Positions 5,750-20,730 of a DNA stretch of 64,000 nucleotides are shown here, one piece after another (the first letter of the stretch is position 1; every line of letters begins with the position of its first letter). The notes under the pieces were generated by a model, which was not told the DNA's origin, did not search any database, and worked only from the letters and a program-made list of their open reading frames with translations. The stretch is from Candidatus Latescibacterota bacterium (GTDB lineage: Bacteria > Latescibacterota > UBA2968 > GCA-2709665). Made by a program: the position numbers and the translations under genes. The stretch spans positions 288,001-352,000 of the forward strand of contig OZ241917.1 in the NCBI GenBank assembly GCA_965203805.1. The letters are read 5' to 3'.

Positions 5750-6003
5750 GGTGGCATTGCGCGAAAGTGCAGGCACAGACGGCAAAGGGTGCCTTGCCGG
5801 GTGTCCGACGTGACCCCGTGCGGCGAGTGAAGTCAGATCCGGAAGCATGCGGATTGTCTGCATTTCAACTGTTAGACGCCGCAGAAATCGGTTCGGTTTC
5901 TGAAAAACCGGCGCCGGTCGGTCTATCTGTAACGAACTATAGACTTTTGCGCGCTGCAGCCGGGCCCGACATAATGGATGTTCCATGATATCGGGGAAAG
6001 AAA

Positions 6004-6037
6004 AGAAAAAACACGCTGATTTCAGCGTGTTTTTTCT
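6004..6037. terminator. Intrinsic terminator after the redoxin operon (possibly bidirectional)
   Basis: AGAAAAAACACGCTGA-TT-TCAGCGTGTTTTTTCT inverted repeat with A/T tracts on both sides, 20 nt downstream of the 6058 stop. Confidence 0.8.
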
Positions 6038-6057
6038 ACGTAATGACTACCTTCAAT

Positions 6058-7038
6058 TCAGGGCACGCGTTTGCCGAAGTTTTTCGCGAATTCCAGAAAG
6101 TCGCGAAAGTCGACCAGCCCGCTTCCGTCAAGGTCGAAGGTGGCGTTGTCGGTGTTGAAGGCCTGTGCGAATGCGATGAAGTCGCTGAATCCGATTTCGC
6201 CGTCATTGTCGAAGTCGGCCCGGGGATTGACGGGGACGATGACGGCCGTTCCGGAGAACGAGACGGTAATGCTGCGGTTTTCAGGGTCGTTGCTCAGAAT
6301 TGTGAGGGTGCCGGAGAATGGACCGCCCTCCGAGGGTGTAAAGGTGATATCGACGGTCCCGCTGTCGCCGGGCGCGACCATGAGTCTCGTGCGGCTGAAC
6401 GTGACGCCCTCGAGGTCGGACTCCATGTTCGAAATCCTGAGGGGCTCCCCTCCGGTATTCTTCACGACGAGGGTAAGGGTCCTGGCTTCTCCGGCGGGAA
6501 CGTCCTCGCCTAAGTCGAGAGATGTATTGGCGAGGCTGATTGCCGGCGGCGCGACGGCCAGCAATCCCCGGATACTCGTCGCCGCGGCGCTGAGACCGGA
6601 AGCGCCGCGGCCGATGTGCCGGACGATCCCTTCACGGTCCGCGACCAGCATCGTGTGGGTCCCGTGAGATCCCCTGACACTGCCTGCCTTAAGCAGGAGG
6701 GGAAACGTGATCGAAGTCGTTGATTGAAATCCTTGAAGTTGGGACTGACTGCCATTGTAGATGTCGAGCCCCAGGACCGCAACGCCGTCATCCTGGAACG
6801 CCTTCCAGATCTGCTGTTCAATGGACGGACCCGCCGCCCTGCAGGTGGGTCAGTTGTGGCCCAGGTAATAGAGAACCAGAATGCTGCCCTTGTAATTCGC
6901 GGTGGCGTAGGTTTTCCCGTCCAGCCCCGTCAGCGAGAAGGTGGGCGCCGCGTCTCCGACACTCTGGGCTTCGGCGGGTTCCGGCGGGTTGAGTCCGAAG
7001 AGCAGAAGAAACACAAGGCACGTCGCGATTCGACTCAT
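6058..7038 (-). CDS. Predicted exported selenoprotein (326 aa): signal peptide, thioredoxin-fold redoxin with UxxC (Sec63), Ig-like domain, dockerin/EF-hand-like tail
   Basis: ORFs 6850-7038 and 6058-6651 share a frame. The only stop between them is TGA 6852-6850, in ...VLYYLGHN-U-PTC-RAAGPSIEQQIWKAFQDDGVAVLGLDIYNG... RBS AAGGAGG; SECIS-like hairpin immediately 3'; C-terminal DFDNDGEIGFSDF / DLDGSGLVDFRDF repeats. Confidence 0.85.
6823..6839 (-). promoter_or_regulatory. Candidate bacterial SECIS element
   Basis: mRNA reads UGA-CCCACCUGCA-GGGCGG-CGGGU-CCGUCC: a 6-bp stem with one G-U pair, a 5-nt loop 16 nt after UGA, and G at loop position 2. Confidence 0.7.
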
Positions 7039-7071
7039 CGAAGGCCTCCTTTAAGAAAGTGAAGGTTTGTG

Positions 7072-8655
7072 TCAGAAATAGGTCTTAAAACGCATTTCAA
7101 GTCCATTGAACGGCAATACCTGATAGCATGTCCCCGATGTACACGCGGCGCCGCCCCGCCTCCGGCCGGCGAAGACGAGGGCTTCGTATCTGTCGAGGAA
7201 GGCGGCGTTGAGATTGACCGCCACCCAGGTCCGCGACCCGGTTTCGATCCGGTCCGTCGTGGCGCTATCATCCACTTCGAACGGGTCGTTGGTGCGATCC
7301 AGAACGAGAGCGGCCCCCACGCCCGAGGGATGCTGGAATGAAAACTGGGCATACACGTCACGGAACGTCGGCTCGTTTCGGGGAAGCCTTGCCGCGCGTC
7401 GGACCTGCAGATCGAAGCCCGTGACAGCCCCGCCGGGTGCGATGGACTCGATTCCCGCGCCGGCAATCCTGTGCATTCGGATGCCCTTCAATTCGTCTTT
7501 GCCCCAATCCACGAACAGGCTGGTCGAAATCGCGCGGCCGTGGTCTTCCGGGTGGTGGTCGATGTCCAGGCCGACGTACCGTTCATTGAAAGTCGTCGCG
7601 AATCCGGGCGCCAGTTCGTTCTTCCCCTTACTGATGTTTGCCGTCAGCGTCCCCAGCCCGAAAATCGAATACGTGGCCTCCGCCTGATAGCCCGTTTCCG
7701 TATCGGCAATCAGGGCATGGGTGGCCCGGTTGAGCAGGACGGCCGAGTGTTCGCGGACCAGGGAAGGGGGATCGTTGAAACTGAAGGCGAAATTCTCATA
7801 GTCCTTGTATTCCAGGCTGAGACCCAGGTTGGAAATCCCGGCGTTTGCCGAAAGATACAGAGCGCTGCCGTCCACGTGCACGTCGTTCAGCCCTGCGTAT
7901 TCCGCGTATACGGTCGCGTACAGGTCAGAGAATCCGGATGCTTCAAATGCCGGCGTGACGTCCAGCTCCAGGAAACCCGACCACGATCGGGTCGAATCAA
8001 GCCCGGAGGCGTGGTGACTGACGGCCGTAACACCGGCCTTAATTTGGCTGGCAGGCTGAAGCGAGACCTCGCCTCCGACCAGCCAGCTATCGCGCCGCGG
8101 CAGGTCCTGGAGCGGGTTGCCCACTCGAACCGCGGGCGGAATGTCACTTAATACGGGTCGCCCGATCAGGGCTTTGGCCCCGGCCCGCGGCCCCGTCCAG
8201 GTGGCCATGCCTCCCTCGAGGTCTCGCGAAGGCGAATAGCGTCGCCGGTATTGCCCGCTCTCCAGAATTACGCCCGGCAGATCGAATGCCCTGAGCGTGA
8301 TACCCCGACCCAGGATGGCATAGTAGTTGCCCGCAACCAGTTCGGCGGGTCCATGGGTCCACCGCAGTTGTTTCTGGGCCAGATGCACAACCTGGTATTC
8401 GACCTGTGAAAGCGGCGAGTCGCGACCGGTGTTGCGCCATGCGTTGAAAATCTCGGCCTGCAGGCCCGCCTGAAATTCACCCCGGGTGTAACTGATATCG
8501 AACTGTTCGTAAAGGTTCGAAATTGCAAGCGAATCCGAGCCCGGTACGCGTCCCCGCTGGACTTCGGTCAGGCTGGATGCAGTCACCTGCGCGACCGCGG
8601 GCTGCGCCGTCGACAGCAGTATTGGCACGATCAGGTTATTGATCAGCGCTCGCAT
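7072..8655 (-). CDS. Outer-membrane beta-barrel protein, DUF6029-like, with C-terminal CxxGxC motif
   Basis: Signal peptide, alternating amphipathic beta strands, GNYYAILGRGITLR, EYKDY, GGAACTSGTCYQVLPFNG and a terminal Phe. Family name is by recognition, not by search. Confidence 0.7.
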   Translation of the reverse strand: MRALINNLIVPILLSTAQPAVAQVTASSLTEVQRGRVPGSDSLAISNLYEQFDISYTRGEFQAGLQAEIFNAWRNTGRDSPLSQVEYQVVHLAQKQLRWTHGPAELVAGNYYAILGRGITLRAFDLPGVILESGQYRRRYSPSRDLEGGMATWTGPRAGAKALIGRPVLSDIPPAVRVGNPLQDLPRRDSWLVGGEVSLQPASQIKAGVTAVSHHASGLDSTRSWSGFLELDVTPAFEASGFSDLYATVYAEYAGLNDVHVDGSALYLSANAGISNLGLSLEYKDYENFAFSFNDPPSLVREHSAVLLNRATHALIADTETGYQAEATYSIFGLGTLTANISKGKNELAPGFATTFNERYVGLDIDHHPEDHGRAISTSLFVDWGKDELKGIRMHRIAGAGIESIAPGGAVTGFDLQVRRAARLPRNEPTFRDVYAQFSFQHPSGVGAALVLDRTNDPFEVDDSATTDRIETGSRTWVAVNLNAAFLDRYEALVFAGRRRGGAACTSGTCYQVLPFNGLEMRFKTYF

Positions 8656-9175
8656 CGGAGTCTGCCTCGTCGTCGGTGCCGGAGTCGGGGAAAAGCGCTT
8701 CGACTGCAGCCAGCAACACATCGGCGTTTTTCGAATTGTATCCGACCTGCCGCAGCGCAATTTCACCATCCGGCGTGATCAGCAGCGTCGTGGGAAGGAC
8801 GTTCACCTGCATTCGCCGCATCACCGCGCTGTCGGAGTCGAGGGCGATGGGGAAGCTGACCTTTCGCGCCCTGAGGAACGGTTTCACCCTGTTCTGTCCG
8901 CGCGGACCGTCCACGTTGACGCCAAGAACCGTGAGCCCGGATTTTCCATATTTCTCGTGGATCTTCTGGAGCTTGGGCATTGCCTTGATGCAAGGCTTGC
9001 AGTAGGTCGCCCAGAAGTCCAGGAGCACGGGACCCTTTGCCAGCAGGGTCTTGAGGTTGACCCGTTCGCCCCGCAGGTTCCGGAGATTGAAATCGGGGGC
9101 GGGGGCGGCGTTCACGGATGCGGAAATCAGCGTGATTGAGGCGGCAAGAGCCAACGATTGAACGGTCGATTTCAT
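8636..9175 (-). CDS. TlpA/ResA-family thiol-disulfide oxidoreductase, exported
   Basis: Signal peptide, APDFNL, LDFWATYCKPC, LPTTLLI. Confidence 0.9.
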   Translation of the reverse strand: MKSTVQSLALAASITLISASVNAAPAPDFNLRNLRGERVNLKTLLAKGPVLLDFWATYCKPCIKAMPKLQKIHEKYGKSGLTVLGVNVDGPRGQNRVKPFLRARKVSFPIALDSDSAVMRRMQVNVLPTTLLITPDGEIALRQVGYNSKNADVLLAAVEALFPDSGTDDEADSDASADQ

Positions 9176-9649
9176 CGGTCGAATCTTCCCCTCGCAAGAT
9201 AGCGGTGGTACGAGGATGTTGCCGTTACTCTGAAGGACCCCCCGCGCGTCTGCCCGGTTCCGGAATCCACGCTGCCGCGCACAATGCACGGTGGTCCGGA
9301 TCAACGTCGAATTGCCTAACAATAACCGAAAGATCGCGGCGCATCAAGCGCTATTTTGCTTTGTTTCATAAGTACCTTTCAGGCGGCATAGCAGTCTGGC
9401 GCCTGAAAACCCGGCGGGAGTAACGACGATCTCGATTCCAACGATCCGTTTCCGCTTGCCGCGCTTTTCCGTTCGATCTATATTGTACGAATCGACCGCA
9501 ACCGCGGGCGCCCGCGGTTGCGGAAACAACAATGCTCTGAAGTCGTCAGGATCGTGTAACGCGTTCGATTGCGGGGCGTCTCTAGCGTAACCGGACACCG
9601 GGCCGTCCGTTTTGCGGACGGTCGTTGAATTTCAGGGGAAGGGCTCGCC

Positions 9650-20519: not shown

Positions 20520-20730
20520 ACTCCAAGATGAGATATCCCGTGGGTTAACCCACCTGAAGGCTCCTTGTAGACTACAAGGTCGATAGGTCGCAGGTGTAAG
20601 CGCAGCAATGCGTTCAGCCGAGCGATACTAATCAGCCGTGCGGCTTGATCAATTAATGGCTTCTCGGCGGATCGCCTGTGCGTTCTGTATGCAGCGAGAT
20701 CCTGTTCCGTATTCGGTTGTCTCTTTTGTT

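Follow-up and report, generated by a model that had tools for sequence, protein, structure and literature searches.

The gene considered here lies on the reverse strand of a 64,000-nucleotide stretch from the genome of a Candidatus Latescibacterota bacterium (assembly GCA_965203805.1, contig OZ241917.1, positions 288,001 to 352,000; the whole stretch is called the window), and it probably encodes an exported redoxin with selenocysteine (Sec) in its active site. It spans 6058..7038 (−), that is, 326 codons plus a stop, in a single frame that runs from the ATG at 7038-7036 to a TGA at 6060-6058 and has as its only internal stop another TGA, at 6852-6850. A Shine-Dalgarno sequence, AGGAGG, is found at 7045..7050 (−), 6 nt 5' of the ATG, and an intrinsic-terminator-like hairpin with a T run at 6004..6037 (−), 21 nt past the stop codon; this hairpin follows the second TGA and not the first. 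Under genetic code table 11 the list of open reading frames (ORFs) divides the gene into one ORF of 62 aa (6850-7038) and another of 197 aa (6058-6651). An initial sequence-only reading of this DNA had proposed that both belong to one frame, and this is borne out, since they share a frame and the 66 intervening codons contain no stop. The read-through product has 326 residues and the motif GHN-U-PT-C, which is found in the frame together with the other peptides quoted in that reading (VAVLGLDIYNG, ITFPLLLK, and MLVADREG).

The internal UGA is codon 63 (6850..6852, −) and opens the sequence U-P-T-C, an assignment based on the homolog column and on alignment with solved structures. It falls within a redoxin domain (residues 25-160; 6559..6966, −) with a thioredoxin fold, of AhpC/TSA-Redoxin type and TlpA/ResA-like, according to Pfam, NCBIfam, Protein Data Bank (PDB) alignment, AlphaFold2 (AF2), and Foldseek. 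Pfam AhpC/TSA (PF00578) matches this region with 52.4 bits (cut-off 26) and Redoxin with 37.2 bits, and PF00578 is matched by all 31 aligned family members. In PDB sequence alignments, U63 stands opposite the first Cys of WCxxC in the TlpA/ResA-like proteins of entries 2ls5, 3hdc, and 3kcm, the position at which the TGA had originally been placed. The AF2 model, built on a 31-sequence alignment, has a mean predicted local distance difference test (pLDDT) score of 87.9, with U63 just ahead of helix 64-81; the predicted thioredoxin fold extends across the TGA, and a UxxC motif (U63-P-T-C66) occupies its active site. The best Foldseek matches are 2ls5, ResA, TlpA-like proteins, and DipZ C-terminal domains, followed by Bcp/AhpE peroxiredoxins. 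Within the family the motif is G-[HYF]-[NS]-U-x-x-C, with no Trp preceding it. As for curated models, choice_anch_D is the only one to reach its cut-off in the NCBIfam scan, and no selenoprotein or redoxin model does; with the TlpA model the window protein stays under the reporting threshold (E ≤ 0.1), and three relatives score 27-30 bits against a cut-off of 230.

The position of the UGA has been followed in related genomes. Searching 40 relatives in six frames turned up an ortholog in every one of the 14 genomes of the same genus, with 72-87% identity and exactly one in-frame TGA in each; identity refers to residues 1-326, or to residues 1-268 in two genomes with a duplicated Ig domain. When the redoxin domain was searched in 168 genomes of the phylum, 120 gave a match at E ≤ 1e-8, and among the matches listed nearly all contained one TGA, six were stop-free, one had a TAA, and one had a TGA and a TAG. 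Ninety loci were then fetched and aligned to the query, every stop-free match seen being deliberately included. At 78 non-identical homologous sites, the codon in column 63 is TGA (72 sites), TGT (four) or TGC (two), and nothing else, counts that describe a pattern and are no frequency. An in-frame UGA aligning with Cys in homologs, as looked for in selenoprotein genes, is therefore what the family presents (72 TGA and 6 Cys); Trp or another residue, which the sequence-only reading had considered at this codon, does not occur. The ratio of nonsynonymous to synonymous substitution rates (dN/dS) in five ungapped orthologs is 0.12 over codons 25-62, 0.135 over codons 64-160, 0.22 in the Ig domain, and 0.11 in the tail, and is 0.16 over codons 64-129, the stretch covered by neither table-11 ORF. 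Purifying selection acts on both sides of the TGA.

Tandem copies also occur in the family. Four congeners (G004, G009, G010, and G002) carry, directly 3' of the ortholog, a second Sec paralog (L030, L031, L032, and L033, respectively) with U-D/N-L-C and about 60% identity in the redoxin domain; the gene is single-copy in the window's genome. At locus L076 (G079:C178), a Cys form (TGC) and a Sec form are found in tandem at sites 250 and 1621, with the same GGACGGUCCGUCC hairpin in both, a pair that may reflect a recent Sec/Cys conversion after duplication.

Just past the UGA lies a putative selenocysteine insertion sequence (SECIS) hairpin (6823..6839, −), identified by comparative hairpin analysis and by comparison with fdhF and selD. 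It has a 6-bp stem, GGGCGG/CCGUCC, and a loop, CGGGU, in which G23 and U24 are unpaired; its parts are GGGCGG at 6839-6834, the loop at 6833-6829, and CCGUCC at 6828-6823. The hairpin starts 10 nt past the UGA and its loop 16 nt past it, with a G at loop position 2, so the stem-loop is present exactly as first described, spacing and loop G included. Published criteria for bacterial SECIS (bSECIS) elements ask for a loop of 3-9 nt, a stem of 4-16 bp, a G in loop positions 1-2, a spacing of 16-37 nt, and an MFE (minimum free energy) of −7.5 or lower (PMC13188914, legend of Fig. 2). The window hairpin agrees with all four criteria of that legend (a 5-nt loop, a 6-bp stem, a G as the second loop nucleotide, 16 nt of spacing, and −7.8 kcal/mol), and the claimed fit to the bacterial SECIS consensus holds to this extent.

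The same element has been traced through the 72 Sec forms. All of them have a contiguous hairpin at +11/+20 to +25/+34 (counted from the U of UGA), and the first three bSECIS criteria apply to 72 of 72 under contiguous-stem scoring. Among these hairpins there are 34 distinct sequences, for example GGGCGG-CGGGU-CCGUCC, GGACG-GGUC-CGUCC, GAGCGGC-GGC-GCCGCUC, CUCUCG-CGUGC-CGAGAG, and UCGCGG-AGG-CCGCGA. The mean energy of the best hairpin is −7.2 kcal/mol, compared with −1.46 for segments of the same size at other codon offsets of the same genes, and the site is in the top 5% of the control segments of its own gene in 46 of the 72 genes. For the window gene, none of 172 control segments contains a contiguous hairpin as good as or better than −7.8 kcal/mol. 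Covariation was measured in an ungapped alignment of 72 sequences and 48 columns. In the register given by the sequence-only reading, 66% of cells are paired, the covariation score is 0.266 against 0.116 in shuffled alignments (0 of 500 shuffles reach 0.266), and five of the six stem pairs have two-sided changes. The hairpin is thus conserved in homologs in the sense that its position is kept and both sides of its stem change. A register slid by −2 scores equally well in the same alignment, and across subfamilies the hairpin is constant in place and not in exact register. Among 14 genus-level orthologs, the synonymous substitution rate (dS) falls from 0.83 upstream to 0.20 in codons +1..+9, with 0.40 in codons +10..+18; such a low value points to a constraint at the nucleotide level on top of the protein-level one. 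With these comparative data, a chance origin of the hairpin is untenable.

The genome offers the machinery needed for Sec decoding. It consists of one contig of 5.87 Mb, in which the genes for tRNA-Sec (selC; 73.4 bits), selB (370.7 bits), and selA (559.2 bits) adjoin at 1.838-1.841 Mb, and selD (358.7 bits) is found elsewhere, at 2.775 Mb; the four sel genes whose presence had been made a check on the proposal are all above their cut-offs. The selD gene (G000:C1:2775468-2776391; locus L023, about 1528-1570) itself has an in-frame TGA followed by a hairpin, CAGUCC-GGUC-GGACUG, and SelD would consequently be a selenoprotein here. An alternative genetic code was considered and rejected, TGA being the terminator both of the selenoprotein gene and of the DUF6029 gene upstream; selA and selB are free of internal stops under table 11. 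The possibility of an assembly error, also raised at the outset, has been examined in independent DNA. Besides the 14 of 14 congeners with an identical TGA, the TGA is bridged by a contig of another study's metagenome (X4 record 7; 6136-7150), in which 6850-6852 are unchanged. Two more DNA contigs (X5 and X7) cover the TGA and end 27 nt beyond it, the bridging rule being 31 nt. In one metatranscriptome library, contigs 6086-6233, 6307-6493, and 6882-7148 lie to either side of the TGA and none spans it; libraries of this sort may contain DNA. DNA nearly identical to window positions 5950-7150 has been found in runs of seven studies labelled as sponge, coral or marine metagenomes, which suggests an organism that is associated with marine invertebrates.

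In public protein sets only the 3' part of this gene is represented. In a collection of 5.8 billion proteins, close relatives appear only as pieces of 197-241 aa downstream of the TGA, some of them named "choice-of-anchor D domain-containing protein" and originating from Gemmatimonadota or Latescibacteria metagenome-assembled genomes; none of these pieces includes the redoxin active site. With the active-site Sec encoded by an in-frame TGA, only the tail is retained in public gene calls, and the expectation that standard gene callers would split or miss the gene was therefore correct.

The remaining domains of the protein are those of exported proteins. Residues 1-24 (6967..7038, −) form a predicted signal peptide of signal peptidase I type, read from the sequence, the orthologs, and AF2, which consists of MSR, the hydrophobic stretch IATCLVFLLLFGL (a 13-residue core), and NPPEPAEA, followed by Q25. 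The A-x-A-Q site is kept in orthologs, AF2 gives a helix at 2-15 and then a low-confidence linker, and members throughout the family have hydrophobic, signal-peptide-like N-termini with Sec at about position 60-65. A reading of Cys7 as part of a lipoprotein signal was considered and rejected, this Cys being 6 residues from the N-terminus, ahead of the hydrophobic core, and without a lipobox. Residues 165-264 (6247..6546, −) correspond to an immunoglobulin (Ig)-like domain of the DUF1573/choice-of-anchor D kind according to Pfam, NCBIfam, AF2, and Foldseek. Both model cut-offs are exceeded (PF07610, 48.7 bits vs 26.1; NF012200, 51 vs 45), and the domain is all-beta in AF2, with a Foldseek match to the PapD-like domain of HYDIN. 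Residues 269-326 (6061..6234, −) make up a C-terminal, dockerin-like module with paired Ca-binding loops, recognized by Pfam, AF2, and homology. Taken alone, this tail scores 33.5 bits with EF-hand_1 and 18.8 bits with Dockerin_1 (PF00404), under the cut-off of 22.9, and "dockerin-like" is therefore to be understood as a resemblance only. In AF2 it forms two units of Ca-loop and helix, with no entering helix before either. It shares 51% identity with the tail of another protein of the genome, encoded at G000:C1:1937317-1937574, that does pass Dockerin_1, and the cellulosomal dockerin 2y3n_B is among its PDB sequence matches. Dockerin_1 is matched by 7 of 31 family members at E ≤ 0.001, and over the cut-off the genome contains two matches to cohesin, at G000:C1:3329699-3330061 and 3837822-3838127, and at least 13 to Dockerin_1. 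From the domain layout first proposed, the redoxin, the Ig-like spacer, and the paired Ca-loop tail stand; the tail misses the Dockerin_1 cut-off and is a putative anchor. Some homologs of the Ig/dockerin part carry stops of their own. Relatives have an in-frame TGA in three matches to this part of the query (G021:C48:54186-54704, G018:C131:256-795, and G038:C1:762782-763267), which may be selenoproteins of the OS_HP2 type with DUF1573, and an Ig/dockerin homolog in the window's genome (G000:C1:5526126-5526581) has one in-frame TAG.

Across the family, what follows the redoxin domain is variable: the tail together with one or two Ig domains, nothing but the tail (L076), a tandem-95 repeat in addition (L070), a type IX secretion system (T9SS) domain or a short tail. 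Every one of these tail variants is a module of secreted or surface proteins. T9SS type A sorting domains (cut-off 23 bits) replace the tail in L098 (38.3 bits) and L099 (28 bits), which supports export. TlpA-like proteins are typically extracytoplasmic. With the signal peptides, the T9SS and surface modules of relatives, and this habit of TlpA-like proteins, export is a reasonable reading. The proposal that the selenol would be outside the cytoplasm agrees with the signal peptides, the T9SS tails in relatives, and the fold, and export is to be taken as predicted.

The neighbouring genes give additional context. The selenoprotein gene is the last of a co-directional run in which a TlpA-like gene is followed by a DUF6029 gene and then by the Sec-redoxin. 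The first of them (8636..9322, −; ORF, Pfam, and conserved neighbour) encodes a canonical exported TlpA-like CxxC redoxin with WATYCKPC, cis-Pro in LPTT, and an AhpC/TSA match of 85.9 bits. The second (7072..8769, −; likely start at 8655; ORF, Pfam, AF2, Foldseek, and conserved neighbour) ends 33 nt ahead of the selenoprotein ATG and encodes a DUF6029 protein that is predicted to be an all-beta outer-membrane barrel (pLDDT 72) and ends in Phe. All Foldseek matches of its model are outer-membrane barrels (PapC and FimD pores, porins, and TonB-dependent receptors), and across 13 homologs it has an invariant Cys pair, C505 and C510, in C-T-x-G-T-C within the last beta-hairpin, near the C-terminus. 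The sole DUF6029 paper found compares the domain with the Wzi barrel and suggests that it takes part in exporting polysaccharide (PMC9603273). The surroundings (~10 kb) of 20 diverse Sec-form genes and of the window gene, 21 loci in total, were compared. In 14 of the 21, the genes for the TlpA-like protein, DUF6029, and the Sec-redoxin are within ~3 kb, and in seven the partners are lacking; the 14 loci belong to three families of the phylum and differ in gene order and orientation. The window's genome has one DUF6029, one Sec-redoxin, and one DsbD_TM homolog. Elsewhere in the window, a 23S rRNA gene (16944-20652) gives a match of 3709 nt to a model of 2925 nt, and inside the match an ORF of 179 aa (19093-19632, +) scores 49.6 bits with the LAGLIDADG_1 homing endonuclease. 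The overlong match and the inner ORF suggest that the rDNA contains an intron or intervening sequence that carries a homing endonuclease; a run of Rfam on the window at gathering thresholds listed no intron family.

The best explanation of these data as a whole, to which we would give a probability of roughly 0.85, is a Sec-decoded, exported UxxC redoxin that is held at the envelope or surface and recycled by a TlpA-type protein. The locus is best read as a genuine selenoprotein gene and not as a pseudogene. For the window protein, we infer Sec insertion, export, location, substrate, and electron donor as follows. SelB with Sec-tRNA(Sec) would decode the UGA at codon 63, directed by the short SECIS hairpin 14-30 nt past its U. 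A Sec-type (secretory) signal peptide would then take the product out of the cytoplasm. There, the selenolate of U63 would attack a substrate disulfide or, less likely, a peroxide, and C66 would resolve by forming a Se-S bond. The Ig-like domain and the Ca-binding, dockerin-like tail would probably keep the protein attached to the envelope or surface of the cell, and re-reduction would probably be carried out by the TlpA-type CxxC protein encoded two genes upstream, which might draw its electrons from the CcdA/DsbD homolog of the genome. As substrate, a protein disulfide is preferred with somewhat better than even odds, and a peroxide is considered rather unlikely.

Several observations weigh against this explanation. 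Under contiguous-stem scoring, all four bSECIS criteria apply to only 35 of the 72 Sec forms. RNAalifold found no fixed-register consensus in the ungapped alignment of 72 sequences, a result explained by shifts of 1-3 nt in the hairpin register between subfamilies. Folding of the single 71-nt sequence gives z = 0.07, with 95 of 200 shuffles folding as well, and the MFE fold of this stretch (6790-6860) pairs differently from the SECIS hairpin; in a GC-rich coding stretch such as this one, single-sequence folding is uninformative. Several congeners have a stronger competing hairpin at +8..+23 (−9.4 kcal/mol), and an Rfam scan of 6700-6950 at E ≤ 10 gave no match. The homologs compared are kin, so that their counts overstate independence, and the loci were chosen by us, stop-free matches included. 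The cis-Pro of TlpA/ResA is lost: position 128 is His in the window protein and H/D/E/Q in the family, whereas the canonical Cys form L117, like 3kcm and 3hdc, has Pro in this column. The window protein misses the NCBIfam cut-offs of ResA (44.2 vs 170), DsbE (13.5 vs 123), and StoA (23.1 vs 210). Lacking cis-Pro and scoring far below the ResA, TlpA, and DsbE cut-offs, the protein is not assured of plain disulfide-reductase chemistry. A redoxin anchored at the surface would, moreover, be out of reach of a periplasmic reductant. Finally, the selenium in the protein is deduced from sequence.

The alternative that survives best, still an unlikely one, is a selenol peroxidase resembling peroxiredoxin (Prx) or glutathione peroxidase in the periplasm or at the surface, in which U63 would be oxidized to a selenenic acid, C66 would resolve it, and the neighbouring TlpA would recycle the enzyme. 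The best Pfam match of the domain is AhpC/TSA (52.4 bits), the NCBIfam models of thiol peroxidase, PrxQ, and glutathione peroxidase are matched weakly, Bcp1, Bcp4, and AhpE are among the Foldseek matches, and the thioredoxin cis-Pro is absent, as in peroxiredoxins. The "Prx-like" selenoproteins have been described in section 7 of an earlier survey as distant Prx homologs with UxxC (PMC1088965), and near-identical DNA in sponge and coral metagenomes makes host oxidants plausible in our view. On the other hand, the peroxiredoxin motif PxxxTxxC is absent, the motif being L-G-H-N-U-P-T-C, and so is, in the family alignment, the conserved Arg of Prx (six residues before D134). U63 aligns with the nucleophile of the reductase CxxC and not with the peroxidatic Cys of Prx, and the nearest solved structures are disulfide oxidoreductases. 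It is highly improbable that the locus is a nonsense pseudogene or a pair of genes coding for a 62-aa peptide and a 197-aa "choice-of-anchor D" protein. Public collections do contain only 3' fragments of the family (197-241 aa), and UGA is a normal stop in this genome; yet all 14 congeners retain the TGA, as do 72 of 78 homologous sites, with Cys in the remainder, codons 64-129, translated by neither ORF, have a dN/dS of 0.16, the redoxin fold crosses the TGA, and the hairpin is conserved with synonymous change suppressed over it. Equally improbable is a UGA-63 read by other than Sec-tRNA, whether by near-cognate read-through or by reassignment to Trp or Gly. The indirect way in which selenium was deduced leaves room for it, but no residue other than Cys takes the place of TGA in the column, the genome has the complete Sec machinery, TGA serves as the stop of this gene and of its neighbour, selA and selB are stop-free under table 11, and in spacing and GGUC loop the hairpin agrees with proven SECIS elements. 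That the TGA is an assembly or sequencing error for TGC or TGT, a reading in whose favour nothing emerged, is hardly conceivable with the codon identical in 14 independent congener genomes and unchanged at 6850-6852 in X4 record 7 of another study.

Beyond the Sec-decoded exported redoxin itself, the neighbourhood allows a more speculative proposal, which we consider improbable as it stands. The three genes might form an envelope redox module, in which TlpA, fed by CcdA/DsbD, would pass electrons to the selenol redoxin, and the latter would be carried or displayed at the surface via or beside the DUF6029 barrel with its invariant Cys pair and held there by dockerin-like or T9SS modules. To our knowledge, no described selenoprotein redoxin is known outside the outer membrane. 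If true, such a module would mean a selenium-based reducing or antioxidant activity outside the outer membrane in bacteria of sponge and coral metagenomes.

Selenoproteins of this kind have been known for a long time. Sec redoxins with PF00578 and UxxC have been described as "Prx-like thiol:disulfide oxidoreductase," "Prx-like protein," and "Prx-like 1" in the relevant tables and sections of earlier work (PMC13188914, Table 1; PMC1088965, section 7 and Tables 1-3; PMC2398784, Table 2), and the "thiol-disulfide isomerase-like" family (cd02966) likewise (PMC13188914, Table 1; PMC1088965; PMC2398784). Knowledge of "Prx-like" UxxC redoxins with Sec goes back to 2004-2005, so that the kind itself is not novel. 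The discussion of PMC2398784 and the legend of its Figure S1 mention Prx-like selenoproteins that are fused to other domains, and a selenoprotein of the TonB-dependent-receptor type is listed in a review, so that selenium outside the cytoplasm has a precedent there. The database BSepDB may already include these genes, from what its description conveys (PMC13326102). In the literature found, no selenoprotein is fused to a dockerin, a DUF1573 or a type IX secretion module, and DUF1573 appears only in reviews that list OS_HP2. What goes beyond this literature is the fusion to surface modules, the loss of cis-Pro, and the conserved neighbourhood of TlpA and DUF6029; the family is a distinct variant within a known kind, predicted to be exported, devoid of cis-Pro, provided with surface-directing modules, and linked to genes for TlpA and an outer-membrane barrel. 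The significance is in part one of annotation, a correction with reach, given that 120 of the 168 phylum genomes match the redoxin domain at E ≤ 1e-8. As public sets contain only 3' fragments, named after the Ig domain, surveys based on proteins cannot see the family's redox half. A selenol active site linked to surface-targeting modules and to two conserved partner genes is, in addition, a testable system for extracytoplasmic selenium chemistry, and the natural Sec/Cys pairs and 34 hairpin variants are material for studies of SECIS tolerance and Sec-to-Cys conversion.

Comparison with known systems places the locus more precisely. The SECIS of E. coli fdhF has GGUC at the identical +22..+25 from the U of UGA and, as here, a hairpin just past the UGA; by contrast, the window hairpin has a far shorter stem (6 bp, or 4 bp in the register with a GGUC tetraloop), no bulged U can be assigned, and the register varies by subfamily. 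A likeness in the genome's own selD is the GGUC loop at +21..+24 of the hairpin CAGUCC-GGUC-GGACUG. The Ig-like domain is of the DUF1573 kind, as in OS_HP2, a selenoprotein of that type with UxC, listed with pfam07610 in Table 2 of PMC2398784; the match to NF041425 is weak (30.3 bits, under the cut-off of 100), and in the window protein, unlike OS_HP2, the Sec is in the redoxin and the Ig domain has no TGA. With type I dockerins of cellulosomes, the tail shares a length of ~58 C-terminal residues and two Ca-binding loops, each followed by a helix, whereas it stays under the Dockerin_1 cut-off and EF-hand models score higher. TlpA, ResA, and DsbE proteins (PDB 2ls5, 1su9/1st9, 3kcm, and 3hdc) are similar in fold (Foldseek template modelling score of 0.78-0.85 on the target), in the position of the active site and, as predicted for the window protein, in exported location; the latter differs in having Sec for the first Cys, no preceding Trp, and His128 instead of cis-Pro. 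Finally, the Prx-like selenoproteins ("Prx-like 1" of the GOS survey), to the extent that the cited tables and sections describe them, share with it AhpC/TSA, Sec as the first residue of UxxC, a SECIS directly downstream, and a distant likeness to Prx combined with a thioredoxin-type motif; set against that description, the present family has G-[HYF]-[NS]-U-x-x-C, no cis-Pro, a signal peptide always, and fusions to Ig, dockerin-like or T9SS modules.

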